This document shows positions 512 to 18,371 of a stretch of DNA of 20,000 nt, one piece after another. The position numbers and the translations under genes were made by a program. This DNA is from an uncultured virus (IMG/VR IMGVR_UViG_3300009177_000003) (lineage: Duplodnaviria; Heunggongvirae; Uroviricota; Caudoviricetes): IMG/VR virus record IMGVR_UViG_3300009177_000003; one strand, written 5' to 3'. Position 1 is the stretch's first letter. Every line of letters starts with the position of its first letter. The notes under the pieces were generated by a model that saw nothing but the letters and a program-made list of their open reading frames with translations, was not told the DNA's origin and ran no database searches.

Positions 512-553
512 TCGCGGCCTCCCCAGACCGACCTTCTACCCAGGCCGCGATCT

Positions 554-1722: not shown

Positions 1723-1726
1723 TTTC

Positions 1727-1765: not shown

Positions 1766-1774
1766 GACCGACGA

Positions 1775-2032: not shown

Positions 2033-2064
2033 GTTTCGCTTCCGGTGGACGGCGGCTCTCTCAT

Positions 2065-2120
2065 TGATTTCCCTCCCTCTTTTGCCAGTCGGGCGCGGTA
2101 ACTGAGCTGTTATCGCGCGT
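2065..2120. repeat. Junction element E (~54-bp direct repeat copy 1, contains GGGCGCGGTAA-CTGAGCTG-TTATCGCGCGT)
   Basis: Near-identical to 2397-2453; contains the TAA stop of the upstream gene and a GAGGGAGG RBS on the minus strand. Confidence 0.9.
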
Positions 2121-2391
2121 CGTCAGCGTCCTGTAGGCCCATGACAACGTATCCAGGCTCAATGCCAAGCTGGCCGCCCGTCAGGATGTAGCTGATCCGC
2201 TTCCGCACTTCCTTGAAGCTGTAGGAGCCGGGTTCCGTTGTCGAAAGCCCGGTTTTTCGTTCCGTGCACCGCAGCACGAGGATATCGCCACGCTGAAAGC
2301 CGCGATCATCCCGGCGAACCTCAAAGGGCTTCGCGCCGGACGCCACCGCCTCCCAGTAGGGCTGCCACGTTTTCAGGACGTGCTCGGTCAT
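2110..2391 (-). CDS. DUF3850 / ASCH (PUA-like) domain protein
   Basis: HVLKTWQPYWEAVASGAKPFEVRRDDRGFQRGDILVL and GYVVMG signature. Confidence 0.88.
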   Translation of the reverse strand: MTEHVLKTWQPYWEAVASGAKPFEVRRDDRGFQRGDILVLRCTERKTGLSTTEPGSYSFKEVRKRISYILTGGQLGIEPGYVVMGLQDADDAR

Positions 2392-2396
2392 CCGCC

Positions 2397-2453
2397 TGAT
2401 TTCCCTTCCTCTTTTGCCGGCTCAGCGCGGGTAACTGAGCTGTTATCGCGCCC
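2397..2453. repeat. Junction element D (~54-bp direct repeat copy 2, contains AGCGCGGGTAA-CTGAGCTG-TTATCGCGCCC)
   Basis: Near-identical to 2065-2120. Confidence 0.9.
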
Positions 2454-2724
2454 GGCCAACGTCTACGGAGGCGCCAAGCCAGTTGGCTGCCATTGCATAG
2501 AAAACGTGATCTGCGGCTGCCTCGCCCGGAGAATCGCCGCGCGGTCCCAGTTCAAACTGCTGCCCCGTTCCAGCCTGATCTATTTGCCTTTCCAGGGCGG
2601 CGATGGCCCGCAGCATATTGCTGGCGAGTCGTTCGTGAAACGCTAGAAGGTGCTCCGGCGGAAGCTGAGCGAGCCACAGGTCGTATTCAACGACCGGATC
2701 GTCGAGGTCGAGATCGCTCTGCAT
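2443..2724 (-). CDS. Hypothetical helical protein (cassette-like module)
   Basis: AGGAG RBS; TAA stop lies inside junction D. Confidence 0.7.
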   Translation of the reverse strand: MQSDLDLDDPVVEYDLWLAQLPPEHLLAFHERLASNMLRAIAALERQIDQAGTGQQFELGPRGDSPGEAAADHVFYAMAANWLGASVDVGRAR

Positions 2725-2733
2725 TGGGCGCTC

Positions 2734-2773
2734 CTAAATTCCACTAGGCGCGAGAAGCGGGACTATGGCGCCC
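2734..2773. repeat. Junction element C: CTAAATTCCACTAG leader plus AGGCGCGAGAA-GCGGGA-CTATGGCGCCC
   Basis: Degenerate 11-6-11 inverted repeat; contains the TAG stop of the upstream gene. Confidence 0.75.
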
Positions 2774-2999
2774 GGCTTAGGGCCTCCCTGATCTTGTCCA
2801 TGGTCCCTGCGTTCGGCGCCGTGTTGAACATCATGTCGTCCACCACCTCCTGAAGCAGCGAGCGCAGCCGCCCGATCTCTTCATCAGACACCCGCAGCAT
2901 CTCGCGGGCTGCACGCATCGCAGCTTCACGGTCTTGCTCGTAGGCGCTGTCGTCCGATTGCAACCAGTCAGCCGCCGCCTCAATGCGAGCATGGCTCAT
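2763..2999 (-). CDS. Hypothetical coiled-coil protein (MSHARIE...), cassette-like module
   Basis: Start moved to ATG at 2999 after a GGGAG RBS, which removes the overlap with the upstream gene. Confidence 0.7.
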   Translation of the reverse strand: MSHARIEAAADWLQSDDSAYEQDREAAMRAAREMLRVSDEEIGRLRSLLQEVVDDMMFNTAPNAGTMDKIREALSRAP

Positions 3000-3009
3000 G
3001 TTTCGCTCC

Positions 3010-3028
3010 CTAATTCCACTAGGCGCGG
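3010..3028. repeat. Junction element B (half site): CTAATTCCACTAGGCGCGG
   Basis: Matches the leader and one arm of junction C; contains the TAG stop of the HNH gene. Confidence 0.75.
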
Positions 3029-3513
3029 TCGGCATAGCGCCATCCACTCATCGATCGCGAGGCGCGGTAGCGTGCTGTTGCAGGGTGTATCCCATAATGC
3101 CGGGCCGCTGATTTTATTGACGGGAAGAGACCATCGGGCGTCTGGCACGCTTTGGCCTGCCTTGAGTCGGCGCCATTTTCCTTCGCGGAACCACAGAAGA
3201 TATTGCCCAGCTCATAGGGGCCGCGGTCGTTGAATCGGCACATACGCCACTGTCCCAAACCCTTCCCGCGTTCCGCTCCTGGCCCTTTTCGAGCAAGGGC
3301 ATCGTGCCACCAGTTGAACCACGCCTCATAAGTCAGATTGAATTCGATGCCACGTCTGGCTGCCTGTTTTCTGTGTGCCTCACAGGCCATCCGGCTGAGC
3401 ATGTGGCCCTTGCAACAGTCCCGACAAAAGGTCGCACGGCCGTCTGCCGAGAACATGGTGTAGTGAAAATCGGCGATGTCTTTGTTTTCCCCACACTTTT
3501 CGCAATGCTTCAT
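3019..3513 (-). CDS. Putative HNH-like homing endonuclease (N-terminal Zn ribbon, C-terminal NUMOD1-like HTH)
   Basis: CEKC...CRDC; GIEFNLTYEAW; MCRFNDRGPYELGNIF; FPSIKSAARHYGI; visibly lower GC than flanks. Confidence 0.75.
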   Translation of the reverse strand: MKHCEKCGENKDIADFHYTMFSADGRATFCRDCCKGHMLSRMACEAHRKQAARRGIEFNLTYEAWFNWWHDALARKGPGAERGKGLGQWRMCRFNDRGPYELGNIFCGSAKENGADSRQAKACQTPDGLFPSIKSAARHYGIHPATARYRASRSMSGWRYADRA

Positions 3514-3524
3514 GGGTGCCTCGG

Positions 3525-3564
3525 GTAAATTCCACTACTCCACATAATCGGGGTTATCGCGCCT
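3525..3564. repeat. Junction element A: GTAAATTCCACTAC leader plus ACTCCACATAA-TCGGGG-TTATCGCGCCT
   Basis: Minus strand reads AGGCGCGATAA CCCCGA TTATGTGGAGT, a dif-like 11-6-11 geometry. Confidence 0.8.
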
Positions 3565-3781
3565 AGGTGCCCTCCGGTGCGATTTCCGGCACGCTCCGCT
3601 CGATCTCGTCGGCGATGAAGCGCAACATCCGCGACAGCCCTGCGGTGACGGCCGGCGTCGCCTGAACCGAGAACCCACTCCCCGCAGGGCCGCCGATCAC
3701 CACAACGATCACGCCCTCTGCCGCCGCCTGCTCGCGGACGAGCGTCGCGAGGTCGTCGTATTTTCCGGGTCCGGCTGGCAT
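3563..3781 (-). CDS. Small phage hypothetical protein
   Basis: 72 aa, GGAGG upstream, GPGKYDDL...GSGFSVQ. Confidence 0.75.
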   Translation of the reverse strand: MPAGPGKYDDLATLVREQAAAEGVIVVVIGGPAGSGFSVQATPAVTAGLSRMLRFIADEIERSVPEIAPEGT

Positions 3782-3799
3782 AGCTTCTTTTGACCTCCG

Positions 3800-3994
3800 T
3801 CATCCACCCCCTCGAATCCGGCGAAGCAGCTGCGACAGGCGCCATGGCCGCATCGCCCTGGCCTCGGCCAGCTGCTGGCGCAGCGCCTCCGCGGGGCATT
3901 CCATCTCCTTTTCTTTCGGCAGCGAGGCGCACATCCCGCACGTCTCGACCCCCCACCACCGGGCGCCGCAGCGCGGACAGCGCCAGGGTTTCAT
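3800..3994 (-). CDS. Small Zn-ribbon protein
   Basis: CPRC...CGMC; ATGA coupling. Confidence 0.65.
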   Translation of the reverse strand: MKPWRCPRCGARWWGVETCGMCASLPKEKEMECPAEALRQQLAEARAMRPWRLSQLLRRIRGGG

Positions 3995-4179
3995 TCGTCG
4001 CGTCCCATTTCCCGCAGCGCTTCCTCCCGCTCCTTCGGATCCATCCGCGCCAGGATCTTCTCGATCTCGCGCATCAGCATTTCACAGTACGTGTAGGGAA
4101 AGGCTTCCCACGCGGCCGCGAGATGGACCAACACCACGAGCGAGATCAGCCAAAGCCCGAGTTCGACGGTTAGGATCAT
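3991..4179 (-). CDS. Small membrane protein (MILTVELGLWLISLVVLVHL...)
   Basis: ATGA-coupled on both sides; hydrophobic N-terminus. Confidence 0.65.
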   Translation of the reverse strand: MILTVELGLWLISLVVLVHLAAAWEAFPYTYCEMLMREIEKILARMDPKEREEALREMGRDE

Positions 4180-4556
4180 GCCAACTTCAACATAAACAGC
4201 CCCGGCTGCCGATCTTGCACCGGCTCGACTACCCGGACGCCGATGGCGCGAGCCTGCCGCACGCAATCCCGGGTCCCCTTCCCGCCCGGAAACGCCAGAA
4301 CGACGTCGGGCTTCGCATCCAGCAGCATGTGCTTGTTACGTTCCGGCCCAGCACGATCCCCGCGGCTCCAGTCGGCCTTATAGGTCACGAGGGGCACCTT
4401 GCGCCGGCGCGCCCAGGCGGCGGCGAGACGGTCGGCCCCCGGAGCTCCGCCCTGCCCGAGGATCTCGATGCCGTAGTTGTTGTGCCAGAGGTCCAGCACA
4501 TGCCAGAGCGTCTGCCGGTCGGCGTAATTCCTCCCGCCGCACACCACGACCATCAT
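4176..4556 (-). CDS. YspA/SLOG family (DUF2493-like) protein
   Basis: VVVCGGRNY...GGAPGADRLA...ADW...AGPERN..ML...VLAFPGGKGT; start at ATG 4556. Confidence 0.9.
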   Translation of the reverse strand: MMVVVCGGRNYADRQTLWHVLDLWHNNYGIEILGQGGAPGADRLAAAWARRRKVPLVTYKADWSRGDRAGPERNKHMLLDAKPDVVLAFPGGKGTRDCVRQARAIGVRVVEPVQDRQPGLFMLKLA

Positions 4557-4726
4557 GCGGCGTCCCTTTCGTGCGGCAGCCGGCGCCGCATTTCCTCCCG
4601 CTCCTCCGGATCCCCGATCCCGGCGATGAACGAGCAGGTCAGGCAACGTCCGTGCTCTGGCGGGCGGCCCAGCGCCATCGAATGGATCGACCAGCCGCAG
4701 TCGCAGCATATGAATGTCACGCTCAT
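4553..4726 (-). CDS. Small Zn-finger protein (MSVTFICCDCG...RCLTCSF), not in ORF track
   Basis: 57 aa, two CxxC pairs, ATGA-coupled to the SLOG gene. Confidence 0.65.
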   Translation of the reverse strand: MSVTFICCDCGWSIHSMALGRPPEHGRCLTCSFIAGIGDPEEREEMRRRLPHERDAA

Positions 4727-4736
4727 GCCCGCCCTT

Positions 4737-4952
4737 TCACCATCCTTGGGGTGGAACGGGATCGTGGATCACCATGCGCCGGCTATCCGGGTCGAGGCTG
4801 GCGAACCAGTAGGTCGCCTCGGCCTCAATGGCCTGGGTTGCGACTCGCGGCGGCAGGGCATCGCGCGCCACGAAACGGGCGACGCGCCCCTCCCTGTCGA
4901 TGATCTCCCAGTGCCTATGATCGGCGCGAGGCCGCATAACCTTGACGATCAT
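4737..4952 (-). CDS. Hypothetical protein (MIVKVMRPR...)
   Basis: GAGGAGG RBS before ATG 4952. Confidence 0.7.
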   Translation of the reverse strand: MIVKVMRPRADHRHWEIIDREGRVARFVARDALPPRVATQAIEAEATYWFASLDPDSRRMVIHDPVPPQGW

Positions 4953-5025
4953 AGAGTCCTCCTCTCTTGCGCGAATCTTTGCGGTGTGTACCCGGCACGA
5001 CAGTCGCCCATTTTCCGGAGGCCGC

Positions 5026-5418
5026 GTGTCGGAAGACGAGATCCCCCAGGACGAGCTGGCTGGGGACAAGCTGGCCAACTACACGATCAAGAACCTGCCC
5101 TTGCGGGCCCGGATGCGGGCCTCGAACGCAGCCAGGATGGCCGGCCGGCCGCTCGGCCAATGGATGGACTGGGCGATCGGCCTTGCGGCCGACCAGCAGG
5201 AGCGGAACGCGGTGCTGCCTGGGGGCGACAGTCGTGCCCTCGTGCCCCCGGGCTCCGAGGCGACGGCCCCGGCGCTGCCAGGGGCGACAGTCGCCCCTCC
5301 GGATCCGATGCTCTGTCTGGTGCACGCCGCCGTGGCGCTGAGCGGGGTCGGTGTGCGGAATACCAAGGTCGTGCGGCAGGCGCGTGACCTCGTCAGCCGA
5401 AAGCTGCTCGAGCTGTAG
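5026..5418 (+). CDS. Putative ribbon-helix-helix DNA-binding protein, counter-oriented in the left arm
   Basis: GGAGG before GTG; NYTIKNLPLRARMRASNAARMAGRPLGQWMDWAI fits a strand-helix-G-helix RHH pattern. Confidence 0.65.
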   Translation: MSEDEIPQDELAGDKLANYTIKNLPLRARMRASNAARMAGRPLGQWMDWAIGLAADQQERNAVLPGGDSRALVPPGSEATAPALPGATVAPPDPMLCLVHAAVALSGVGVRNTKVVRQARDLVSRKLLEL

Positions 5419-5441
5419 GCGACGCTGGCGTAGCGACGGCA

Positions 5442-6743
5442 TCAGCCAGCCTCCAGCATCCGGTCGATCTCCCCCGGCGTGGGGAGGATCGCCGCGTGCG
5501 CTTTTGTCCAGCCACCTTTGTCGAGCTCGCTCAGCGGCCGGTCGAGCTTGCCGGGGGCGCCGATCCAATCGGCGATCTTCTCGGCCATCTCGGCGCTGGT
5601 GATCTTGTCGGTCTCGTCCTCCGCGTCTTCGAGTGCGCCGATGTTAAACTCGGTGAAGTCGACGTGGTCGATGCCCGGTACCGTGATCGCGATGTCGTAG
5701 CCGTTCCACTGGAAGCGCTTCAGCCCGGAGAAATGCAGCTTGATTGCGCGGATCCCGCGTTTGGTCCGTCGCTGATGGGCACGCACCAAATGGAAAATCC
5801 GCCGTCTCTTGCCGTCAGCGGTCTGCACCTGCTCACGGTCGCGGAAGAAGGCTGGGGTTTCCAACACGTCGACCACGAACGGCATGACAATGTTGTCCTT
5901 GGTCGCCGTGACCCGGATCATGCTGCGGTGCGCGGAGTAGAGCCACATGTTCATGCAGCTGATGAAGGTCCGGCGCAGATGTTCGGCCGAACTGAGGCCC
6001 TCGCTATAGTTATCCTCAAAGTCACTCAGCCCCCAACGCTGATGCTTAATGACGCTCTCTCCACCCTTGCGATGGCGGATCACCTGCGATTCTGACTTCA
6101 GCACCCGAAGCGCTCGCACGGTCCCGTCGGGGAAGACATTGACGACATAGTCATCGCCCCACCCATGCTTGCGCTGGTGATTGTTGAGCGTCTTGTTCTT
6201 CTTGTCGTCCCAATAGACGTGACAGCGATAGGTGACTCCGGCGTTGACCCGTTCGATGTTGTGGCCTGGACGCTCCAGGCGGACGAAGGTCATGAAGCGG
6301 CCCTGGACCTTCCTCTCACCATTGACCACATCGTCGTCGGAGCTGGTGAGACCGATCGCGACGGCTCCGAAGGCTGGCATGATGCGCAATGCCTCCGGCT
6401 CCAGCTCGCGATGATCGTGCTTCAAGCCGCGCACGATATAGGCTCCGAGCCGGCGATAGAGCGCGTAGTGATCTGGCGACCAGCGGCGCATGCGCTTGAT
6501 GTACGTCTGATAGATATCCAGCCTGTCGAGTACGTCGGCCTTCAGTTTCGCTATGTGCCTGCGGGGCGCCCGGGGCGGGGTGGGTGGGCTGACAGCCTTG
6601 GGTGCCGGCTCTGGGGCCAGCACCGCCTCGATCGCCGTCTCGTCGCAGTCGAGCAGCGAGCGAGCACCGACCCCGCCCATACAGGTCTTCCAAAAGCCGA
6701 TCCAAGCCTGCGAGGCGGCGTGATTGATGGCGGCGTGATTCAA
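5442..6743 (-). CDS. Large phage hypothetical protein with IFHLVRAHQR motif
   Basis: ~433 aa; GGAGG before TTG at 6743; basic His-Arg motif near the C-terminus. Confidence 0.8.
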   Translation of the reverse strand: MNHAAINHAASQAWIGFWKTCMGGVGARSLLDCDETAIEAVLAPEPAPKAVSPPTPPRAPRRHIAKLKADVLDRLDIYQTYIKRMRRWSPDHYALYRRLGAYIVRGLKHDHRELEPEALRIMPAFGAVAIGLTSSDDDVVNGERKVQGRFMTFVRLERPGHNIERVNAGVTYRCHVYWDDKKNKTLNNHQRKHGWGDDYVVNVFPDGTVRALRVLKSESQVIRHRKGGESVIKHQRWGLSDFEDNYSEGLSSAEHLRRTFISCMNMWLYSAHRSMIRVTATKDNIVMPFVVDVLETPAFFRDREQVQTADGKRRRIFHLVRAHQRRTKRGIRAIKLHFSGLKRFQWNGYDIAITVPGIDHVDFTEFNIGALEDAEDETDKITSAEMAEKIADWIGAPGKLDRPLSELDKGGWTKAHAAILPTPGEIDRMLEAG

Positions 6744-6832
6744 AAACGGTCCTCCCCCCAAAGGCTCGTCAGTGGGTCACAGCGCCATCCCCGGCCTCGT
6801 GATCGGGCAATAGTCGCGGTCTGGCCCTGAAC

Positions 6833-7075
6833 TCATGCAACGGCCTCTCGCGTGGTCTCCTCGGCGCGGCGGCCGGTCCGTGTGATGGCGAACAGCACGA
6901 ACCGCAGGTCGCCGGAGCTCGGCGGGTGTCGGGTCACCAGCTTCCGCGCCACCAATCCGTTCGCCAGCCTCGACGCCTGCGAGCGCGATATCCCCATCAG
7001 CGAGGCGATCGAGCCGAGCGCCAGCCGCTCGTGTGTCGCCAGCACGCCCAGCAGCTGTCGCTCGCGCGGTGTCAT
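6833..7075 (-). CDS. MarR-like winged helix protein
   Basis: IASLMGISRSQASRLANGLVARKLVTR...DLR...ITRTGR. Confidence 0.85.
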   Translation of the reverse strand: MTPRERQLLGVLATHERLALGSIASLMGISRSQASRLANGLVARKLVTRHPPSSGDLRFVLFAITRTGRRAEETTREAVA

Positions 7076-8544
7076 GCTGCGGCCGCCGGCAGCTCGTTGT
7101 GCTTCGCGGTGAACTCGGCATTGATCCGGTTGAACAGCGGCGGCTTGCTGGTCCGCAGCTTGGCGATCTGCGGCCGGATCTCGGAGACTAGGCGATCGAA
7201 GTCCTTCCGCCCGTTGGCGTCCGCCGTGATCTTCTGGATCTTCGTGACCTGCGCATCGACCCAGACCGCGTCCTCATCCTGCGCCGGCGGCGGCGCGGGC
7301 TCCTTCATCCAGTCCGGCACCACATCGCCGTCGTCTTCCTCGGCGCGCCGTTGCGCCTCGCCACGGTCGAAGTTGTCCATCATCCGACCGACGACTGACG
7401 CCGGCTCTTGCAGATCGACCAACAACGGTCCGACGGCTGGGTAGGTCCTGGCCGCGGCCAAGGCGTCGGCGTTGTGGTGCAGCAGGTTCGGCCGCTCGAA
7501 GCCCGGCGTCCGCTCCCATTCCTTGAGCATCAGACGGGCCCAGCGCGCCGGGTCGACGGTCAGCTCGCCGTCGGTCTCGCCGTTGGCGTCGAACACCGGG
7601 AAGTCGAAGCCCGGCGGCGGCGTTGCGACCTTCTGCGCCAGCCGCTTGCGAGCGGCGCCGAGCGCTGCGGCGATCTCCACCTGCGCCGGCTTGGGTGCTT
7701 TGTCGACGTGCTCGCGCACGATCTGCACGAGCTCCTCGAGCTTCTCCGCCGTCGGCTCGCTGGCGAAGGCCGCCTTCAGCCGATCGACTTCCGCTCGCTC
7801 GCCGCGGGCCAGCCGTTGCTTCCAGTCCCGCGGGGGAGGGGCGACTGTCGTGTCGGGCTGGCGTGGGGGCTGCTCGCGCTTCACCTGATCGCGGCGTTCG
7901 AGGCTCTGGCTCCGCTGTCGGCCGCCGTCGTCGTCCTGGGAGCTTGCATTGCCGTCGATTTCCTCGCGGCGCATCGCAATGCCGATCGCGCGGCAGAGCA
8001 GGCCACGCTGGACGTAGGTTATCGACGCCTGCTGCCCCTGGATGACCGTCTTGTTGGCGGTCCCCTGCGGTCCCATCGTGTCGGCCGGCGTGTCGGGGGC
8101 GAAATACTCCTCCTCGTGTCCGGCCGCGTGGCGGACGATGCACTTGAGGCGGATCAGCTCGGTGCCGGTCGGCACGGTGTCGAACGAGACGCTGAACCCG
8201 TGCGCGGTCCAGATCTGGTAGCACGCCTCCCACAGATCGCCGTAGTCGGTGTACTTGCCCTTGCCTTCCTGGTTGGGCGTGTCTTTATCCAACACCGGGA
8301 GCGCTCGCTGCATTGCCGGCAAGGCGGCATAGAAGGCGATGCGGGCGGCGTCGGCGCGATCGGCCTTCTCCCATTCACGCTGCTTTTCCTGCGTGATGAT
8401 CCAGGTTTCCGCCAGCGTCTTCAGCTTGTCGGCGTCGATCGCCGGGTTCATCGCCATCCGGGTCAGAAAATCGTCCGGCGCCTCGGCCACATGATTTCCG
8501 TTCGTCGGCACGACAGTCGTGCCGGGCTTCTGATCGTCGCTCAT
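7072..8544 (-). CDS. ERF-family ssDNA annealing protein with long C-terminal extension
   Basis: AFYAALPAMQRALP..K..N..KY..Y.DL...HGFSVSF...C..RH..GH.E...QASITYVQR; TGATG-coupled start at 8544. Confidence 0.82.
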   Translation of the reverse strand: MSDDQKPGTTVVPTNGNHVAEAPDDFLTRMAMNPAIDADKLKTLAETWIITQEKQREWEKADRADAARIAFYAALPAMQRALPVLDKDTPNQEGKGKYTDYGDLWEACYQIWTAHGFSVSFDTVPTGTELIRLKCIVRHAAGHEEEYFAPDTPADTMGPQGTANKTVIQGQQASITYVQRGLLCRAIGIAMRREEIDGNASSQDDDGGRQRSQSLERRDQVKREQPPRQPDTTVAPPPRDWKQRLARGERAEVDRLKAAFASEPTAEKLEELVQIVREHVDKAPKPAQVEIAAALGAARKRLAQKVATPPPGFDFPVFDANGETDGELTVDPARWARLMLKEWERTPGFERPNLLHHNADALAAARTYPAVGPLLVDLQEPASVVGRMMDNFDRGEAQRRAEEDDGDVVPDWMKEPAPPPAQDEDAVWVDAQVTKIQKITADANGRKDFDRLVSEIRPQIAKLRTSKPPLFNRINAEFTAKHNELPAAAA

Positions 8545-9338
8545 CAGCGGATACCGAGCGAGGCGACTTCCACCCAACGAATACCCGGCACCTTGGTCGT
8601 CGGCCGTCCGGTTGCCTTGTCACGCTGCTTCATCGCCGCTTTGATGGCGGAGTCATTGATCATCAAATAAGCCAGCGGAATCTTATCGAAGTCCTCGATC
8701 TCGTACTCCCAGCGGGTGCGGACCGAGGCGACGGCACCGTAATGACCTACCGTTTTCGCCAGCTGGGCCGGCTTGCCGGCGGCGATCTCCGCGGCGTTCC
8801 TTGCCGCCCTGGCAGAGTCCGCGGCGGCATGGGCCTGTCCGTCGTCCGGATCGAAGATGCCGCGCCGCTGCACTGCGGCCGCAGCCTCGGCATCGCGCCG
8901 TGCGCGTTCCGCGGCTTCCGCGGCCCGGCGCTGCGCTTCGGCGCGGGCGGCCGCCGCTTTGCGGGTCTGGTAGTCGAGCAGAATGGCGCGGGCCTGCTGC
9001 AGCGGGGCGCCCAGCGTGGTCATGAACCTGTCGCGCCAGCCATCCACCGTCTTGCCGGCGTCGATGAAGGGGCGCTTTTCGGCGAGGATCCGCTCTCTCG
9101 CGGCGCGCTCCATATCGCCGGCGATGCGGATGTTGTCGGTGAACAGCGCGGCGGCTTCGTCGTCCTCGACCTGCGGGTGCGCCTCGATCATTGCGTCGAG
9201 GGCGGGGACGACCTCTTCGTTGCGGCGCTCGACCAGATCGGCGAGGCAGTAGTCGAGCCACTCGGTGACCTGCTGCGCCGACAGCGGCTCGGGAGGCGGC
9301 GGAGCGTTGCTCCCCGTCAGTATGGCGGTGGTTCCCAT
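8544..9338 (-). CDS. Phage coiled-coil protein of the recombination module
   Basis: GSNAPP N-terminus; EKRPF...GKTVD; Ala-rich coil; RTRWEYEIEDFDKIP...VPGIR C-terminus. Confidence 0.8.
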   Translation of the reverse strand: MGTTAILTGSNAPPPPEPLSAQQVTEWLDYCLADLVERRNEEVVPALDAMIEAHPQVEDDEAAALFTDNIRIAGDMERAARERILAEKRPFIDAGKTVDGWRDRFMTTLGAPLQQARAILLDYQTRKAAAARAEAQRRAAEAAERARRDAEAAAAVQRRGIFDPDDGQAHAAADSARAARNAAEIAAGKPAQLAKTVGHYGAVASVRTRWEYEIEDFDKIPLAYLMINDSAIKAAMKQRDKATGRPTTKVPGIRWVEVASLGIR

Positions 9339-9700
9339 GATTGCGGTTTCCTTGGATAGAGAGGCCGCAGATTGAGGCGGTCTATCGCGCGACGCGGCCA
9401 GCACGCGGGATGATCGGGGTTGTTCTCGGCGGCCCAGGATTTGATAGAGAGCAGCCAGGAATAAGTCTCAGCGTCGATGCGTTCACCGTAGGCGTGGATG
9501 TTGGAGACGCCCTCAGCGCGCCACGGGTCCGGATTGGCTGGGTGGGTGAACCCGTCGATCGTGGCCTGCCAGCCATCGCTGGTTGACTCGATCCGGCAGG
9601 GCACCTGCCAGCCGCCGCGGACGAGGCGGAGCCGGAAATAACCGGGCTCGACGATATCGACGAAACGGGCCTGGGAGGCTGCGTGGCGAGGGTTGCTCAC
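9317..9700 (-). CDS. Phage hypothetical protein (EPGYFRLRLVRGGWQVPCRI)
   Basis: GTGA-coupled to the HNH gene. Confidence 0.75.
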   Translation of the reverse strand: MSNPRHAASQARFVDIVEPGYFRLRLVRGGWQVPCRIESTSDGWQATIDGFTHPANPDPWRAEGVSNIHAYGERIDAETYSWLLSIKSWAAENNPDHPACWPRRAIDRLNLRPLYPRKPQSWEPPPY

Positions 9701-10170
9701 GCCACGTGCTGCCAAGATTTGCGGGTGACGATATGAGAGATTGCTGCGCGGCTTACGCCGTAGATCTTACCCAAGTCGGCATAGCTCTTTTGGCCAGTGG
9801 CATACTGCCGCCTGATCGACGTGACGTTCTCTTCGGTCAGAACGGGGGGCCGGCCAGCGCCACGTCGCAGGCCAAGATCGGCCTTGCGCTTCAAATCAGC
9901 CGCGTTCTCCGCTGGCGAGCCAAGGAATAAGTGGCGTGGGTTACAGCAGGCCGGGACATCACACCGATGGCAGACATGCTTGCCTTGTGGGATTTCGCCT
10001 ATCCAGAGCCGATAAGCGGATTTGGCCGCAGTCTCTCGTCGACCATCAGGACTTTCGGATAATCCGTAGCCGGCGCCCGGCCTTCCATCTACCGGTCCTG
10101 TCCAAAGCCAACATTCCTCGTCGGATCCGCGCCTGATACGGGCTTCAAAAACATCAACTTTCCACGCCAT
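9697..10170 (-). CDS. HNH endonuclease (HNH_3 type) with C-terminal HTH
   Basis: CWLWTG...GYG...VCHRCDVPACCNPRHLFLGS..EN; LGKIYGVSRAAISHIV. Confidence 0.92.
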   Translation of the reverse strand: MAWKVDVFEARIRRGSDEECWLWTGPVDGRPGAGYGLSESPDGRRETAAKSAYRLWIGEIPQGKHVCHRCDVPACCNPRHLFLGSPAENAADLKRKADLGLRRGAGRPPVLTEENVTSIRRQYATGQKSYADLGKIYGVSRAAISHIVTRKSWQHVA

Positions 10171-10199
10171 AGGCCGTCAACCATTGTCATGAACTTTGG

Positions 10200-10257
10200 C
10201 AATAGTTGACGAAGCTAGCCTGCGTTGTCAATCCGGTGAATCGGTACAAAACCGATT
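10200..10257 (-). promoter_or_regulatory. Probable leftward early promoter/operator region (PL-like)
   Basis: TTGACA on the minus strand at 10226-10231 within TTGAC...GTCAA dyad (10206-10231); AATCGGT-N5-ACCGATT inverted repeat at 10239-10257; -10 element weak. Confidence 0.45.
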
Positions 10258-10318
10258 TATTTCTGCGAAGGCTGGCGCCTCGGCAGACTGATCGCTGTTA
10301 GGAATGTAACAGCGGAAA

Positions 10319-11074
10319 CTAATTCGGGATGATCGCTCGGACGCGGGTCGCCGCTACGATCTTCTGATCGTAGAGCGTCTCTCCCTTGAACTGGAAGATC
10401 GTCCAGCGTCCATTGGGTTGGAGCTTGAGCTGGGCCGCCAGTGAGGTCAGCCCATCAGCGAGACGGTAGAAGCATAAACGATCGTTCATCTCGGTCGGAT
10501 CGAAGGTCTCCGACATCGGTTCGGCCAGGAGTTTGTAGTCCTTTCCGAGGAATGGTCGAAGCGCGTCGTCCACGGCAGCGATTGCTATAACTGGGATGTC
10601 CGGATCGGCCGGTTCACCATAGTCGAACGCACCAAAATTACCCCCGTCTGGCATGATGATAACCCGTGCAGAGGTGTCGCTGATCGTGCCGACGATACGG
10701 ATTACACGCCGGCGGAGCAACCACGTTTCTTTCTTCCCGAGAATTTCCTCAACCGGAACGTCCAACAGCTCCGCGTAGCGACGCGCTGTTACGTTGTTCA
10801 ACGCGCGGTCGCCTCTTTCGTGGGAATAATATACTGAATAATTTATTTCGTGTTTGCGCGCAAAACCCTTGGCTGTTTTGAAGTGTCTTTCGCGCGCCGC
10901 CCTCAACCGTGCGGCGACCTCCTGATCAGCGTTTGCGCTTGCTCGTGCGCTTCGGTCCCTTTCCTCGACGAGCCGTATTGCTTCCTCAAAGGAGACCTCG
11001 ACGTCTGGGTTCTGCTCGACGTCTCTGTTCTGAGTGCCCGTGTCTGTCATAGCGGCATCGCTCGGGTTATCCAC
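10319..11074 (-). CDS. CI-like XRE repressor with degenerate S24-like C-terminal domain
   Basis: RLRAARERHFKTAKGFARKHEINYSVYYSHERGDR...YAELLDVPVEEIL; divergent from Cro-like gene; start may be 11050. Confidence 0.85.
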   Translation of the reverse strand: MDNPSDAAMTDTGTQNRDVEQNPDVEVSFEEAIRLVEERDRSARASANADQEVAARLRAARERHFKTAKGFARKHEINYSVYYSHERGDRALNNVTARRYAELLDVPVEEILGKKETWLLRRRVIRIVGTISDTSARVIIMPDGGNFGAFDYGEPADPDIPVIAIAAVDDALRPFLGKDYKLLAEPMSETFDPTEMNDRLCFYRLADGLTSLAAQLKLQPNGRWTIFQFKGETLYDQKIVAATRVRAIIPN

Positions 11075-11146
11075 CTTGACGGAAATTCACAAACTGGCGC
11101 AGCATGGTCAATACCGTTCTCTTCCTCGTGACTGTGAAGGCGGCCT

Positions 11147-11734
11147 ATGGTGGCAGACGCTCATCGTGTCACGACGATCAAGGCACTGCTGGATCTGTTC
11201 GCTTCGACAGACCAGATCGCTGCGCGTCTCGGCGTGACATATGCCACGGTTACCGAATGGCATCGCCTTGGCAGGATCCCTGAGTCACACTGGGATCGGT
11301 TCGTCACCGCGGCGCGGGACGCCGGAATAAAGGGCGTCTCGCGCAACCTGCTGGCACGTTTACCGTCTGCCAAGGGGGTCAGCACCGTCGCTGAGCTCCT
11401 CAGCCTTTGGCCTACCATCGCATCCCTGGCTCGAGATCTGGGGCTGCACCATTCAACCGTAGGGTCCTGGGCGGTCCGCAACAGCATCCCGGTGGAGCGA
11501 TGGTCCGGGGTGGTCATGAGTGCGAGATCACACGGCATCGGGCACCTCACGGAGTCACGTCTTCAAGCGATTGCTGAGGCACGGAGAGCGATTCGGCAAG
11601 GCGCAGCACTCGCCGGCGGGCAGACTCACGAAGACGATAGCTCACTCAGCGGAGTCCCGGCAAGGCACGATCACGCACTTTGCGTGATCCATCATGACCC
11701 AGAACATTCCAATAGGGGAGTGACCCTTCGATGA
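11147..11734 (+). CDS. Cro-like protein with two tandem HTH domains (carph-isopro-like)
   Basis: Two ~65 aa units: LLDLF...IAARLGV...V.EW...GRIP..HW...AAR..GI and LLSLW...LARDLGL...V.SW...NSIP..RW...SAR..GI. Confidence 0.82.
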   Translation: MVADAHRVTTIKALLDLFASTDQIAARLGVTYATVTEWHRLGRIPESHWDRFVTAARDAGIKGVSRNLLARLPSAKGVSTVAELLSLWPTIASLARDLGLHHSTVGSWAVRNSIPVERWSGVVMSARSHGIGHLTESRLQAIAEARRAIRQGAALAGGQTHEDDSSLSGVPARHDHALCVIHHDPEHSNRGVTLR

Positions 11735-12327
11735 TGGATGGTCTTTCGAACGTCAGCAATGACGCGATCGCCGCGTTTCAGATCGCTTGGGAGAGGCAGG
11801 ACAGCGTGTGCGCCCGGGAGAACAGCGCCCGCAATCTCCTGGTCAAACAGGCGAAGAAGGAGGGGGTTCCCACCGAGGCGGCGATCGAGGCCATCCGGAC
11901 CAAAAAGCGCCGCGGCTCAGAGGAGGCGCGGATTTTCATGCGCGATCTGCTCCGGAGTCTGGCCTTGGCCAATATGCCGATGAGCCAGCAGGATTTATTC
12001 GAAGGATGGAATGCTGGCGTCTCGCCCGGCGTGAAGGCGGAGGCCGATCTGTGGGCGGCGGAGGACGCCGGCTTCAAGGCGGGGCGGCACCGGATGGACC
12101 TCGCCGATTGCCCGTTCTCGCCGGGCTCCGAGCAGCACGCGGTGTGGCACCGGGAGTATCGCAAGGGCGAGCTCTCGCGCGTCTCCGAGGATCCCGACAC
12201 GACAGTCGCCCCGGCGACCCGCAAGCGCGGACGCCCGCCGCGGCAGGCCCGGATCCCCGGTACCGAGCAGCGGATGCGCCGGCCCGGGCGGGCGTCCTCC
12301 GAGGAGGCCGCCGCTCCCGCTGAATAA
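11731..12327 (+). CDS. GapR/DUF2312-like N-terminus plus Rmf/CrpP-like domain
   Basis: KQAKKEGVPTEAAIEAIRTKK; AEDAGFKAG...CPF...W..EY..G. Confidence 0.6.
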   Translation: MMDGLSNVSNDAIAAFQIAWERQDSVCARENSARNLLVKQAKKEGVPTEAAIEAIRTKKRRGSEEARIFMRDLLRSLALANMPMSQQDLFEGWNAGVSPGVKAEADLWAAEDAGFKAGRHRMDLADCPFSPGSEQHAVWHREYRKGELSRVSEDPDTTVAPATRKRGRPPRQARIPGTEQRMRRPGRASSEEAAAPAE

Positions 12328-12378
12328 CCGCAGCACGGATGGCGACCGACTTCCTCCTGCCTAAAAGGAGTCTCCCCC

Positions 12379-12951
12379 GTGCTGCATGTGCCGTCCAAGG
12401 CGGGCAGCGCGCCCGTGCTCGATTCATTGCCTCCGGGCGGCACGGTCGCCTTCGACCTCTCCGGCACGGTCGGCTGGTGCTATGCGCCGGACTGGATGGC
12501 GGTGCCGGCGAGCGGGCAGTGGGAGCTGCCGCATTGGGGCGGGAAGGGGGCGAAGGGCGCGGCTTTCCTGAACCTGCTCGAGCCGTTCATGGACCGCTAC
12601 CAGCCCACGCACATGGTCTTGGAGCGGGTGCTGCCGCTGCCCGCCATGAACAACTGGAGCGTCGCCTACCAGCAGTTCGGGCTCGGCTGGATGGCCTGGG
12701 CCGAGGCCTATCGTGCCTCCTGCGCGGTCACCGAGATCGATGCGCTGACCGTTCGGTCCGACATCATGGGGCAGCGCCGGTTCTCCAAGGACACCGTCAA
12801 ACGCGAGGTGGTCGCCTACTGCCGCAGGCGGGGCATCAAGGTCACCAGTCACCACGCAGCTGATGCGGTGCTGTGCTGGCTTTGGCACAGGGCGCGGCTG
12901 CAGGGCGAGGCGCCGGTGGCCGGTCCGCTGTTCCGGGAGGTTGCGGCGTGA
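12379..12951 (+). CDS. RuvC-like (RNase H fold) Holliday junction resolvase
   Basis: VAFDLSGTVGWC, MVLER, K.EVV, HHAADA; AGGAG RBS. Confidence 0.75.
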   Translation: MLHVPSKAGSAPVLDSLPPGGTVAFDLSGTVGWCYAPDWMAVPASGQWELPHWGGKGAKGAAFLNLLEPFMDRYQPTHMVLERVLPLPAMNNWSVAYQQFGLGWMAWAEAYRASCAVTEIDALTVRSDIMGQRRFSKDTVKREVVAYCRRRGIKVTSHHAADAVLCWLWHRARLQGEAPVAGPLFREVAA

Positions 12952-13550
12952 CCGCGATCCAGCAGTCCCTGCTGCTGCCTCCGGTGCCCCCGGCCAAGCG
13001 CCGGCTGGTGCCGCGGAGGAACGGCTCGATTCACGATCTGGTCGTCACTCCGGACGCGCTGGCGGCGCGGATCGTCGATCTCTTCAAGCCCTCCGGGGTG
13101 CTGCTCGACCCGGCGCGCGGCAGCGGCCCCTTCTTCCGGGCGCTCGAGCGCTACTCCAACGACGTGCGCTGGTGCGAGCAGGCTGCCGGCCTCGACTTCT
13201 TCGCCTTCCACGAGCCGGTCGACTGGATCATCACCAACCCGCCCTGGTCGAAGATGCGGCAGTTCATCCGCCACGCGATGACGCTCGCCCCGAACATCGT
13301 GTTCGTCGGCACCGTCTCGCACTTCATGCTGAAGGCGCGGCTCCGCGACATGCGTGACGCCGGCTATGGCCTGCAACTGACGCTGTTCGATCAGCCGCCG
13401 AAGCCCTGGCCCGGCTCCGGGTTCCAGCCGGCCATCGGCTATCTGCGCAAAGACGGGCCATTCCCGTTCAGCTGGCTCCCCGAGCTGGCACGACAGTCGC
13501 CCCTCCGGGAAATCAGATCTGCAAGGAGAGAAGTCAGTGCCACCGTCTAA
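12948..13550 (+). CDS. Small orphan amino-DNA methyltransferase (probably N6-adenine)
   Basis: LDPARGSGPF (motif I) preceding IITNPPWS (motif IV); GTGA coupling. Confidence 0.85.
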   Translation: MTAIQQSLLLPPVPPAKRRLVPRRNGSIHDLVVTPDALAARIVDLFKPSGVLLDPARGSGPFFRALERYSNDVRWCEQAAGLDFFAFHEPVDWIITNPPWSKMRQFIRHAMTLAPNIVFVGTVSHFMLKARLRDMRDAGYGLQLTLFDQPPKPWPGSGFQPAIGYLRKDGPFPFSWLPELARQSPLREIRSARREVSATV

Positions 13551-14538
13551 TCCCGTTCTGCCTGCTCGCGTCGGCCAGGAGATCCTGCGCCGTCAGGCGC
13601 CGCCCCTACCGATGGGGCTCGAGGCTCGCAACGACCCGCCGGGCATCGACAAGGAGCTCGCGCAGCTGCGCGCGCTGATCCGGCGACACGGCAAAGTGGC
13701 CGGGGCGGTGAAGCTGAAGATCACCGTGAAGATGGCGAAGGCCATGAAGCATCTGATGGGCAAGAATCGGAAGCTCTCCGAGCCCTGGGTCAGGCGTTGG
13801 GAGCGGGCGCTCCAGGAGGGGCGCTGGAAGGATCTCCCGACCCAGGGGTTCGCCTTCGACTGGGACGGTCTGTTCCGCGACGGCCAGCACCGGGCAGCCG
13901 CGATCATCAATACCGGGATTGAGCCTGACGTCTGGGTGGCCTTCGGTGTGGATCCCGATTCGTTCCCCGTCATGGACACCGGGCTGCGCCGCAACGCCAC
14001 GCAGAATCTCGTCCTCGACGGCGTCAGATTCGCCAGCCCGGTCGCCATCGTGGTCCGCCTCAAGTTCCGCACCGAGCACAACGGCGAAATGCCGGACGAC
14101 GGCTTCGTCCATGATGAGGCCGCCAAGCTGATGGCCCAGGACGACGCGATGGAGCGCGCCGTCGTCGCGGGGCACAAGGTGGTCAAGGAACACCGGGGGG
14201 TGATCGCCTCTTCCGTGATCCTGGCCTACTGGCTGATTGCCACGCGGTCGAAGCGGAAGCTCTCGGTCGACGAGTTCTTCGACCTCTTGTCCGGCGAGGG
14301 CTCCGGGCTGGATGAGACCAGCCCGATCCACCGCCTGCGGCGCAAGTTCAAGCCATTGGCAGCCGCCGGGCGGAAGGCGAGCCAATACCGCAGCCAGACC
14401 GAGCAGGCCGCCTGGATCATCATGGCCTGGAACGCCTGGATCCTCGGTCGATCCATCCCGGTGACAGGCGAGGGATCGCGATCAGCCCTCGCCTGGAGTC
14501 AGCCGCACGCGCTTCCCGTCGTGGATGCAAGGGAGTGA
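13537..14538 (+). CDS. ParB/Srx-like N-terminal domain protein (DGQHR type)
   Basis: NRKLS...G.W...AFD..G...DGQHRAAAII...MDTG.RR. Confidence 0.75.
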   Translation: MPPSNPVLPARVGQEILRRQAPPLPMGLEARNDPPGIDKELAQLRALIRRHGKVAGAVKLKITVKMAKAMKHLMGKNRKLSEPWVRRWERALQEGRWKDLPTQGFAFDWDGLFRDGQHRAAAIINTGIEPDVWVAFGVDPDSFPVMDTGLRRNATQNLVLDGVRFASPVAIVVRLKFRTEHNGEMPDDGFVHDEAAKLMAQDDAMERAVVAGHKVVKEHRGVIASSVILAYWLIATRSKRKLSVDEFFDLLSGEGSGLDETSPIHRLRRKFKPLAAAGRKASQYRSQTEQAAWIIMAWNAWILGRSIPVTGEGSRSALAWSQPHALPVVDARE

Positions 14539-15425
14539 TGCCGATGCTCATACCCATCGATCTGATCATCGTCGGTCCCGGCCATCGCAAGACGACCAAG
14601 GGCAAGGTCACAGAGCTGGTGGCCTCGATCGAGACAATCGGGCTGAAGACGCCGATCACCGTGCGGCCGGCCAAGGAGGCGGGGAAGTATCTGCTGGTCG
14701 CCGGCCGGCATCGGATCGAGGCGTATCGCAAGCTCCGGCGCGGCGAGATCGAGGCGGAGGTGCTGTCGGCGACGGAAGCCGAACGCGACGACCAGATCGA
14801 GGCGCAGCTCTGGGAGCACGCTGAGAATCTCCATCGGAGCGAGCTATCGGTAGCGCAGCGGCTGGTCGCGCAGGGAAGGTGGCTGAAGCTCCGGGCCGAG
14901 AAGATCAAGCGGCAGGAGCAGGCGGGGAATTACCGTCCTGAGGACGGTAAGTCGCAAGATAATTACGTCCGCCGTGGTCGTCCGACCAAAACCCACATCG
15001 AGGCGGCCGCCCGCGAGATGGGCATCGCCTCGAAGACCGCTCGCCGGGCCGTCTTCATCGCCGACAACCTCACCCCGTCGGCGATCAAGGCGGCGGAGGG
15101 GCTCGGCCTGGAGAACAGTCAGGCAGCCCTGGAAGCGGCCGCCGGGGTGCCGGAGGGCTACAAGGAGCAGGTCCTCGAAAACTTCGCCGCGCAGCAGGAT
15201 CGCAAGAAGCGGGAAAAGGCGGCGAGGGCCGAACGGCAGAACGGGGAGGGCCCAGCGCCGCCTCGGACCGAACAGGACATCTTCGACGCTTGGTTCCTTT
15301 CCCTCGACATCGAGGAGCGGGCCAGGATGCGGATCTGGCTCCTCGGCCTGGATCTCGAGGCCCACTTCGCCGAACAGGACAAGACCGAGCAGATGCTCCG
15401 CGACGACCGGGCAGCGCTGCACTGA
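14538..15425 (+). CDS. ParB-like protein (ParB/Srx domain plus HTH)
   Basis: ELVASIETIGLKTPITVR, LVAGRHRIEA, ENLHRSELS, AAAREMGIASKTARR; start 14535 or 14538. Confidence 0.88.
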   Translation: MPMLIPIDLIIVGPGHRKTTKGKVTELVASIETIGLKTPITVRPAKEAGKYLLVAGRHRIEAYRKLRRGEIEAEVLSATEAERDDQIEAQLWEHAENLHRSELSVAQRLVAQGRWLKLRAEKIKRQEQAGNYRPEDGKSQDNYVRRGRPTKTHIEAAAREMGIASKTARRAVFIADNLTPSAIKAAEGLGLENSQAALEAAAGVPEGYKEQVLENFAAQQDRKKREKAARAERQNGEGPAPPRTEQDIFDAWFLSLDIEERARMRIWLLGLDLEAHFAEQDKTEQMLRDDRAALH

Positions 15426-17412: not shown

Positions 17413-18371
17413 CCACTCAGCACGAGCTAGAGATCGAGGTGTGGCTCTCCGACCTGTCACTCAGGTGCGAGCCGCGCTCGAAAGAGAACCTCCGCGTCAT
17501 TATCGCCAAATACGCGGAGGGCCTAGCCGACCTGCCTTACGAGGCGTTCACCACAGCCTCCGGCGAGGGCGCAGCCCGCAACTGGGAGCGCTTCCCGAGC
17601 TACAAGGCGCTCCGGAAGTTCCTGGAGGACTGGGCCGACAAGCACGGGGCGAAGGACACCAAGCTCCTTCCGCCCATCGATGATCCCGGCCTTTCGGACG
17701 AGGACCGGGCCCATGTGCGCTCCTGGATCAACCTCCGAGCCGAGCGCCAGAAGAGCGGCAGGTTCGCCCAGGCGCTCAGCCTCATGCGCAAATGGCCAGC
17801 CGCCTTCGCCTACATCTGCCGCACCGACGACGAAGCCCACGCCACCGCCCAGCAGCGGGGCTGGCTTCCCGAAACCGGCGATACGGTGGACGTCTCCGAG
17901 GCCGGCATCACGGAGCGACTGATCGAGCTCGAAAGTATCGCCGGCGGATCGCTGGGCGCCGTTCTTGCCCCCTTTGGCCTTTCCATTCTCCGCAAGAATG
18001 TCGCTGCCCGCGCGCCCGAGCGGCTCCATCTGCTGCCGGATGTGGTGCTCCCGCAGCGCCAGCCGCGCGAGCCGTCCGAGCGTCGACAGGACGCGGAGGC
18101 CGAAGCCAGCGCGCGAGCCCAGAGGGAGAAACTCCAGCCGGAGATTGACGCCGCCTCCGCTGCCTTCGAGGCCCGCACCGGCCGTAAGCCCGGCCAGCTC
18201 TCCCCAGAACAGCTCGCCGCCGTCCGCGCCCAGGCCGGCATCCACCACCCGCCGGTGCAACAGTCGCCCCAGACCATCGACGGCGACGCCGAGGAGATCC
18301 CGCCCCCTAAGCAATCCGCCAAGGTCATCGACCTCTGGGGCTTTGGCGATACCGAGGAGGTCGCCGCATGA
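17409..18371 (+). CDS. Putative replisome organiser / helicase loader (P-position) protein
   Basis: Immediately after the initiator; Y...L.DLP.EAF...AAR.W..FPS pattern. Confidence 0.6.
   Translation: MTTQHELEIEVWLSDLSLRCEPRSKENLRVIIAKYAEGLADLPYEAFTTASGEGAARNWERFPSYKALRKFLEDWADKHGAKDTKLLPPIDDPGLSDEDRAHVRSWINLRAERQKSGRFAQALSLMRKWPAAFAYICRTDDEAHATAQQRGWLPETGDTVDVSEAGITERLIELESIAGGSLGAVLAPFGLSILRKNVAARAPERLHLLPDVVLPQRQPREPSERRQDAEAEASARAQREKLQPEIDAASAAFEARTGRKPGQLSPEQLAAVRAQAGIHHPPVQQSPQTIDGDAEEIPPPKQSAKVIDLWGFGDTEEVAA

Follow-up and report, generated by a model that had tools for sequence, protein, structure and literature searches.

Seven dispersed 17-bp palindromes in the early region of an uncultured temperate-type phage form a candidate operator network

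The stretch analysed here, hereafter the window, comprises 20,000 nucleotides (65% G+C) from an uncultured virus of the Caudoviricetes (IMG/VR record IMGVR_UViG_3300009177_000003), and the element in question is a set of seven 17-bp palindromes with the core CGACWGTCG scattered among its genes (Table 1). By its genes, the window corresponds to the early region of a temperate-type phage, in which a gene for a CI-like helix–turn–helix (HTH) protein separates a leftward from a rightward operon. Genes for an HNH endonuclease, an exonuclease and Erf lie in the leftward operon, together with one for a 439-aa protein (5442–6761) of unknown function, while the rightward operon comprises the genes 11147–11734, 11731–12327, 12948–13550, 13537–14538 and 14535–15425 and a gene for a DnaA_C-domain protein (18368–18733). 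A gene for a 130-aa protein resembling ribbon–helix–helix (RHH) proteins (5026–5418) is oriented against the leftward operon, and small leftward genes resume beyond it, from a probable open reading frame (ORF) of 71 codons starting at 4952. Genome-wide counts refer to G001, a 42.8-kb virus record that contains the window and is ~55% complete; the window matches G001 bases 4072–24059 at 99.9% identity, with three mismatches and one 12-bp indel. The longest contig reported is ~78 kb (78,180). The sole indel consists of 12 bp at window 8085–8096 that have no counterpart in G001 and lie in frame inside the Erf domain.

Table 1. Positions of the palindromic sites and of the genes discussed in the text (window coordinates)
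Feature	Coordinates	Strand	Remarks
Site 1, GGCACGACAGTCGCCCA	4994..5010		Sole intergenic copy; 22.4 bits
Site 2, GGGGCGACAGTCGTGCC	5222..5238		RHH-like gene, linker peptide G-G-D-S-R-A; 25.0 bits
Site 3, GGGGCGACAGTCGCCCC	5281..5297		Perfect dyad; RHH-like gene, linker peptide G-A-T-V-A-P
Site 4, GGGGCGACTGTCGTGTC	7838..7854		Erf gene (minus strand), D-T-T-V-A-P, Pro-rich linker after the ERF domain
Site 5, GGCACGACAGTCGTGCC	8507..8523		Perfect dyad; Erf codons 8–13, G-T-T-V-V-P, N-terminal tail
Site 6, GACACGACAGTCGCCCC	12196..12212		Gene 11731–12327, D-T-T-V-A-P, C-terminal tail after the RMF-like domain
Site 7, GGCACGACAGTCGCCCC	13487..13503		Methyltransferase-like gene, 3' tail, A-R-Q-S-P; the next gene starts 34 bp further on (13537)
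Possible weak eighth site, GGTGCAACAGTCGCCCC	18254..18270		11.6 bits; not significant alone
Probable 71-aa ORF	4737..4952	-	Divergent from the RHH-like gene; ATG at 4952, ribosome-binding site GAGGAGG
130-aa RHH-like protein	5026..5418	+	Leading candidate binder; GTG start; N-terminal strand-helix-helix pattern
Erf-type single-strand annealing protein	7072..8544	-	Actual start codon ATG at 8544; contains sites 4 and 5
CI-like HTH repressor	10319..11074	-	No palindrome copy in either flanking intergenic region
Protein with two tandem HTH ('carph-isopro') modules	11147..11734	+	First rightward gene; further candidate binder
198-aa protein with RMF-like domain	11731..12327	+	Carries site 6
Small DNA methyltransferase-like protein	12948..13550	+	Motifs DPARGSGPF and NPPW, read by eye; carries site 7
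333-aa protein, phrog_5931	13537..14538	+	DGQHR motif; ParB/Srx-like by eye only
ParB/Noc-like protein	14535..15425	+	Second candidate binder; N-terminal ParB domain, ENLHR box, then HTH-like segment

All seven 17-mers begin where an earlier reading of the window made without database searches (the sequence-only reading) had placed them. The core CGACWGTCG occurs seven times in the window against 0.32 expected from 200 dinucleotide-preserving shuffles, none of which reached seven and the richest of which held three. A second-order Markov model of G001, the kind of background that reading had named for a genome-wide count, predicts 0.74 copies, with a maximum of four in 200 simulations, against the same seven copies, all of which lie within 8.5 kb, with none in the remaining 34 kb; a control pattern, the core read backwards, is found once in G001. 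At every copy the full site is a 17-bp dyad, GGSRCGAC-W-GTCGYSCC, assembled, as had been claimed, from the half-sites GGCACGAC (five times), GGGGCGAC (six times), GACACGAC (twice) and TGGGCGAC (once). Also borne out were the perfect symmetry of the copies at 5281 and 8507 (8/8 mirrored pairs) and the pairing of 7838–7857 with 12193–12212, two 20-nt segments that are inverted and 100% complementary. The surroundings of the sites share nothing beyond two or three flanking bases. When a matrix built from the seven sites was run over G001, the sites themselves scored 22.4–25.9 bits, the next best position 11.6 bits (18254) and everything else less than 5 bits; the scores are bimodal and a tail of weaker sites is absent. 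Simulated matrix maxima had a mean of 9.1, a 95th percentile of 15.1 and values up to 18.3, a range that includes 11.6. The palindrome network is real, non-random and sharply defined.

Codon usage can itself give rise to palindromes, and other enriched 8–9-mers (CGAGCTCG, GAGCNGCTC and others) occur in 100 loci of distant phages that share the 439-aa gene or the portal. These words have no conserved flanks, and the motif of the window differs from them in kind; nothing comparable to its extended palindrome set was present in the 100 loci. Scans of contig collections with the 17-mer as a DNA pattern returned eight single hits, consistent with chance only. A two-site DNA pattern matched at least 120 stretches of genome contigs and 17 viral loci, all of them coding tandem repeats, and none of the matches had a tblastn match to 11 window proteins. 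With a stricter two-site pattern, the metagenome contigs yielded only L176, a 2.7-kb near-identical copy of part of the window (99.95% identity to 3336–5478).

The internal construction of the sites points to the kind of reader. The half-sites are combined as GGCA+GGCA, GGGG+GGGG, GGCA+GGGG, GGGG+GGCA and GACA+GGGG, five sites have only 5–6 of 8 mirrored pairs, and the outer positions vary without compensation. Because the half-sites are independent around a fixed centre, a symmetric protein oligomer is the expected reader, and the dyads, as judged from their sequences, fit a protein-binding site and not an RNA or DNA structure.

The sequence-only reading had also held that conservation of the copies inside genes is at the DNA level, and this is supported by several features. 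The six intragenic copies use three reading frames: one frame serves four of them, reading GTTVVP and DTTVAP within Erf, DTTVAP again in gene 11731 and GATVAP in the 130-aa gene; the 130-aa gene also uses a second frame, for GDSRA, and the methyltransferase tail a third, for ARQSP. Every intragenic site uses at least one rare codon, defined as supplying no more than 12% of the codons of its amino acid in 21 window genes (for Thr, ACA, 7.7%, and ACT, 6.7%; for Ser, AGT, 6.1%; for Arg, CGT, 11.2%, and CGA, 10.4%; for Ala, GCA, 11.5%), an argument that is partly circular, as the sites were picked by their DNA. The use of three frames, together with rare codons at all six intragenic copies, argues that the constraint acts on DNA and not on protein. 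The segments concerned are also variable or peripheral. Both the N-terminal tail of Erf and the Pro-rich linker after its domain, which carry sites 5 and 4, are gapped or unalignable in six of six homologues (34–61% identity); sites 2 and 3 fall in a linker of the 130-aa protein modelled at a predicted local distance difference test (pLDDT) score of ~30; and sites 6 and 7 are encoded in the C-terminal tails of the gene 11731 product and the methyltransferase-like protein. Judging from these alignments and predictions, the sites are placed where the proteins tolerate them, namely in variable linkers or tails.

Near relatives retain the peptides. Among 5.8 billion protein clusters, the 130-aa protein has a single relative, P0002 (76% identity), whose linker shows three indels and few identities and yet keeps GDSRALV and PGATVAP intact. 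By our own count, 12 of 12 site-encoded residues are identical against ~5 of 19 in the rest of the linker (Fisher p = 9e-5), with the caveat that an aligner anchors on identical islands. Similarly, P0011, which is 89% identical to the product of gene 11731, keeps PDTTVAP. Together with the three frames, the variable protein segments and the free combination of half-sites, these retained peptides support the claim of conservation at the DNA level, and in these respects the copies resemble sites bound by a dimeric protein.

The DNA of a relative was not recovered by megablast of 4000–14000 against phages, by tblastn of the RHH-like protein against phages and plasmids, by peptide-pattern scans of viral contigs (RHH-like protein, gene 13537 product and Erf) and genome contigs (RHH-like protein), or by an RHH alignment against metagenome contigs; tblastn of the ParB-like protein against phages gave one match, at 34%, and likewise no relative's DNA. 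Strain variation was uninformative: four runs contained nearly identical strains, and none of 40 among the 77 base differences fell in a site, where fewer than one would be expected by chance.

Altogether, we tentatively favour a model whereby the seven dyads form the operator network of one phage DNA-binding protein, most likely the predicted RHH-like protein, a reading to which we give a little less than an even chance. The RHH-like gene has three of the seven sites clustered in 304 bp. One of these, site 1, is situated in the 73-bp divergent region 4953–5025, 16 bp before the GTG start codon at 5026 and just 5' of its GGAGG, and a divergent region just before a start codon is the classic place of an autoregulatory operator. 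The protein has a strand-helix-helix sequence pattern (YTIKNLP, then helices 26–39 and 43–62) and, after a 30-aa disordered linker whose DNA holds sites 2 and 3, a helical part at the C-terminus; its neighbours in a language-model atlas are annotated RHH_1, RHH_5 and NikA-like, which, at a weak 0.88, are leads only. There are precedents for such a regulator. ArtA of pSK41 is an RHH regulator of many promoters on one mobile element (PMC2777438), and the RHH protein ParG has several targets on its mobile element (PMC3413123).

We infer that the dyads are bound by a protein, that this protein is the RHH-like one and that binding causes repression. In our model, one phage-encoded protein would bind the dyads with high affinity as a dimer or dimer of dimers, each half of the protein reading one of the two 8-bp half-sites (GGCACGAC or GGGGCGAC) that flank the central A/T, and the sites together would constitute a small operator network over the early region. 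Through site 1, the RHH-like protein would repress its own divergent promoter region, while sites 2 and 3, in the linker of its own gene, might raise local occupancy by cooperative binding or looping. Sites 4 and 5 in the leftward Erf operon and sites 6 and 7 in the rightward operon, the latter pair located in gene 11731 and where the methyltransferase gene meets the ParB-like genes, could act as roadblocks or anchors that damp early transcription.

Several observations weigh against this model. The RHH label given to 5026–5418 by the sequence-only reading is plausible by sequence pattern, and it gained no confirmation from profiles or structure models: the protein had no Pfam match at E ≤ 5, no NCBIfam match and nothing better than E = 0.55 in a sequence search of the Protein Data Bank (PDB), and its AlphaFold2 (AF2) monomer (pLDDT 43.7) contains helices and no strand and is too poor for a fold search. 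Prediction of a dimer, which counts neither for nor against the model, gave a score of 0.44, with one control at 0.49. Dyads of 17 bp are more usual for HTH dimers and ParB-family proteins, and RHH proteins mostly read non-palindromic boxes (PMC3413123). Moreover, a scan of 4000–14500 for sigma-70-like promoters found no site, four of the seven dyads lie 2.4–8.5 kb from the RHH-like gene, and a ParB-like DNA-binding protein is encoded 1 kb from site 7. The evidence for conservation consists of protein alignments, with a single relative each; in P0012, which is 57% identical to the gene 11731 product, a two-residue deletion removes the site, and neither site peptide occurs in any of the six Erf homologues, all at ≤61% identity. 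From these alignments, close relatives seem to retain the sites and distant ones to lack them, as expected for a lineage-specific operator set.

A bolder form of the model, which we consider rather unlikely, is that an Mnt/Arc-type regulator has its operators overprinted on coding DNA, with six of seven sites inside genes and two in the regulator's own disordered linker. Binding specificity would then fix short peptides (GDSRA, TTVAP) in the proteins that carry the sites, and the regulator, whose gene would adjoin a possible phage attachment site, might sense or block transcription through both early operons and along its own antisense strand. If true, this would be a compact natural case of a regulatory code overprinted on a protein code and co-evolving with its reader.

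The sequence-only reading had named ParB-like proteins and the repressor as further possible binders, and both lead to readings that differ from ours in the identity of the reader. That the dyads are loading or nucleation sites (parS-, OB- or NBS-like) of the ParB/Noc-like protein encoded at 14535–15425, which would spread or slide from them to silence early genes at a distance, in the manner of KorB on RK2, or to organise the phage DNA, strikes us as somewhat unlikely, and it is not without support. The protein aligns with the N-terminal domain of Noc, including the ENLxR box (E = 6e-6), and matches TIGR00180 parB_part at E = 6e-10 (below cut-off) and 'ParB-like partition protein' PHROGs at E = 9e-24; more broadly, it matches ParB, Noc and RepB models and the sequence of a Noc structure, all below curated cut-offs. 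Its gene shares an operon with site 7, which is 1 kb upstream, and chromosomal parS sites commonly lie inside genes. The palindromes that ParB-family proteins read are ~16 bp long, and KorB works from OB sites at distances of 4 bp to over 1 kb from its target promoters (PMC11790492). Against this, the motif GERRxRA of the cytidine triphosphate (CTP) pocket reads GRHRIEA, Pfam ParB_N scores 25.6 bits, below its cut-off of 26.3, the densest cluster (three of seven sites) sits 9 kb away at the gene of another regulator, and neither a small partner protein nor a ParA was identified in G001. The core is also absent from L292, the one retrieved locus with a match to this ParB-like protein (41% over its N-terminal 105 aa), a relative too distant to weigh much. 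If an HTH repressor were the reader instead, be it the CI-like protein or the two-HTH protein at 11147–11734, the dyads would be stoperator-like sites that block elongation in a lysogen, which we regard as improbable. The presence of two sites within the first 2.5 kb of each early operon would suit such a function, as a 17-bp dyad would suit an HTH dimer or one chain bearing two such modules, and a central A stands on the coding strand in six of seven sites and five of six intragenic ones; only this central base is directional, and the number is small. Stoperator networks include an operator copy at the early promoter adjoining the repressor gene, and here neither a copy nor a near-copy is found in the intergenic regions on either side of the CI-like gene (10171–10318 and 11075–11146), the expected location of CI/Cro operators; a different, 37-bp inverted repeat occupies one of them. 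Stoperators, moreover, are asymmetric 13-bp sites strongly oriented with transcription (PMC6550527) and are numerous and distributed across the phage genome (PMC9283540). The stoperator analogy is weakened by these comparisons, as the dyads are symmetric, number seven, are confined to 8.5 kb and are missing beside the repressor gene.

Phage N15, the other analogy that had been drawn, has dispersed inverted repeats, some of them inside genes, that serve as its centromere; it possesses sopA/sopB and a protelomerase and does not integrate. On this reading, the dyads would be partition sites of a plasmid-prophage, with a ParB/SopB-like protein as their binder and a ParA ATPase as the motor. A ParB-like gene is indeed present; however, AAA_31 (PF13614) and CbiA (PF01656) have no match in G001 (again, a record ~55% complete), the RHH-like protein has no relative among 72,556 plasmid records (PLSDB, one search), and a junction from phage to bacterial sequence at window 5478 in contig L176 suggests an integrated state. 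The centromere analogy has lost ground for want of a ParA-type ATPase in these 42.8 kb and through the possible integration junction, and we consider it very improbable. Least probable of all in our estimation is that the dyads are not operators, but RNA hairpins (nut or processing sites), DNA cruciforms or targets of a phage methyltransferase, a nuclease or a host factor. Three of the seven sites do form stable RNA hairpins (-10.6 to -14.4 kcal/mol), genes for a methyltransferase-like protein and an HNH endonuclease are present, and the core contains GACWGTC, with an A available on both strands. Set against these points, the other four sites fold weakly (-3.8 to -5.0 kcal/mol), the outer positions are uncompensated, and a search of the whole window against Rfam 15 at gathering score gave no match; on the weak folds and the Rfam result, we rejected a hairpin or RNA-element reading. 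Targets of methylases and restriction enzymes are short and would not preserve 17 bp, and GACWGTC occurs only once in G001 outside the seven sites. We know of no host-factor motif that matches the dyads.

The L176 junction adjoins the RHH-like gene. The region concerned is window 5442–5478 and L176 2107–2703. Beyond the junction, a truncated ORF of 36 codons is followed by an alpha/beta-hydrolase-like gene that shares 76–88% identity with genes of many bacteria. The 12 codons that end at the junction come from the phage and yet follow the N-terminus pattern of the corresponding bacterial proteins, FPTLxPxxIxRxxxxG, as an attachment-site core would. The sequence suggests integration at ~5442–5478, beside the RHH-like gene and at the 3' end of the 439-aa gene; the junction may instead be an assembly chimera, and the absence of Phage_integrase, Resolvase and rve matches from G001 counts against integration. 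The idea that the neighbouring 439-aa protein is itself a novel integrase was rejected: it has no recombinase fold (Foldseek best E = 0.036; VIA best Z 4.1), a tRNA gene was found in only one of 41 loci, far from the gene, and in L338 further same-strand ORFs follow it. This protein, encoded on the minus strand, belongs to a large unannotated family with 1118 representatives at E ≤ 0.001 and 86 viral loci. Its AF2 model is confident (pLDDT 81.7), and searches of Pfam, PHROG, NCBIfam and PDB sequences gave no match and structure comparison no clear fold match; AcrVA2 was hit weakly (Foldseek E = 0.036; VIA Z = 3.7).

Other features of the window stand apart from the dyads. The 37-bp inverted repeat at 10175–10211, between the start of the HNH gene and the end of the CI-like gene, has two 14–15-bp arms with two mismatches and is, by its sequence and position, a candidate leftward operator distinct from the dyads. 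An operator shared by CI and Cro was sought and rejected, the two CI-flanking regions having no common 14-mer at ≤2 mismatches. Gene 11147–11734, which occupies the Cro position, encodes two tandem copies of the NCBIfam 'carph-isopro' HTH (62 bits, cut-off 38), an internal duplication. Both the methyltransferase-like and the ParB-like proteins match PHROGs called 'DNA methyltransferase' (phrog_799, phrog_498), and the genes 12948–15425 (methyltransferase-like, DGQHR and ParB/Noc-like) may represent a split form of ParB-methylase fusions. A PDB sequence search with the 333-aa protein (13537–14538) and family searches with the 71-aa ORF product (4737–4952) gave no match.

Upstream of the DnaA_C-domain gene, at a distance of 1.4 kb, the window has three tandem 33-bp repeats (16831–16929), each with the internal inverted repeat GATGTTC..GAACATC; they resemble the iterons of replication origins and have no relation to the 17-bp dyads. 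A 34–38-bp element recurs in the intergenic spaces among the small leftward genes (1727–1764, 2735–2772 and 3526–3563; also 2065–2130 and 2397–2463) and may be a repeated promoter, terminator or ribosome-binding-site unit. In L282, a distant phage with a homologue of the 439-aa protein, positions 103–3999 contain nine copies of a ~45-bp intergenic element (..TTGAC CTGATCATCAG GTGCAGGTGGTCAGC); these look like repeated early promoters, a phenomenon distinct from intragenic dyads.

The stretch is present in public rhizosphere or soil metagenome runs. Relatives of its portal (33–49% identity) sit in bacterial genomes, 18 of 20 loci belonging to Pseudomonadota. Because the window has a high G+C content and its portal relatives are mostly in Pseudomonadota genomes, the host is probably a high-GC proteobacterium.

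Repeated operator words are often the first handle on lysogeny control in an uncultured phage, and here a very sharp motif is matched by only three or four candidate readers. The layout suits tests of how binding sites are embedded in coding sequence without harm to the protein. If the reader is indeed RHH-like or ParB-like, it would provide a new orthogonal repressor–operator set for high-GC hosts; otherwise, the sites would still illustrate clearly how constraint on DNA shapes short peptides in proteins that are unrelated.

Among known systems, the stoperators of the Cluster A mycobacteriophages (L5, Bxb1) likewise consist of a dispersed repressor word within transcription units, with a lineage-specific motif (PMC6550527, PMC9283540). 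They differ in being 13 bp long, asymmetric and bound by a monomer, whereas the sites described here are symmetric 17-bp dyads with 5–8 of 8 mirrored pairs. A second comparison is with RK2, a plasmid with an IncC/ParA partner. Its KorB–OB system places a palindromic operator at promoter-proximal and distant positions, where a ParB-family protein reads it and silences at long range together with a small partner (PMC11790492). The phage resembles this system in encoding a ParB/Noc-like protein and small DNA-binding proteins; unlike in RK2, no ParA was found in 42.8 kb, the CTP motif is altered, and binding is predicted. As in N15, inverted repeats are scattered through a phage genome, the differences being the lack of a detected partition ATPase in those 42.8 kb and the possible host junction.

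The history of the SPBRE of the Bacillus prophage SPbeta offers a parallel, since this 15-bp repeated element was found by sequence alone and recognised by chromatin affinity purification sequencing (ChAP-seq) 24 years later as the site of the master repressor; the word occurs at 9–10 places in the prophage and is bound by MrpR (PMC10516654). The SPBRE copies lie in promoter regions and their binder has a tyrosine-recombinase fold, whereas six of the seven dyads lie in coding sequence. The Streptomyces phage phiC31, a high-GC temperate phage, has many copies of a 17-bp conserved inverted repeat (CIR) bound by its repressor, mostly intergenic and near early promoters and terminators, and the C1 operators of P1 are likewise a dispersed operator set of a temperate phage. 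Mnt of P22 combines an N-terminal RHH domain with a C-terminal tetramerisation domain and binds a symmetric ~17-bp operator as a dimer of dimers; it would be the nearest model for an RHH-like binder. Together with ArtA of pSK41 (PMC2777438) and ParG of TP228 (PMC3413123), Mnt exemplifies small RHH proteins that combine autoregulation with action at other promoters or centromeres of the same element. The sites of these proteins are short boxes or lie in promoters, whereas the phage sites are mostly intragenic and the RHH membership of their candidate reader is predicted. None of these three regulators is known to have sites inside its own coding sequence. By analogy, the closest kinds of system are temperate-phage and plasmid operator sets with dispersed sites; the present case stands out for having six of its seven sites in coding sequence, two of them in the gene of the candidate regulator itself, and for how sharply the set is defined.

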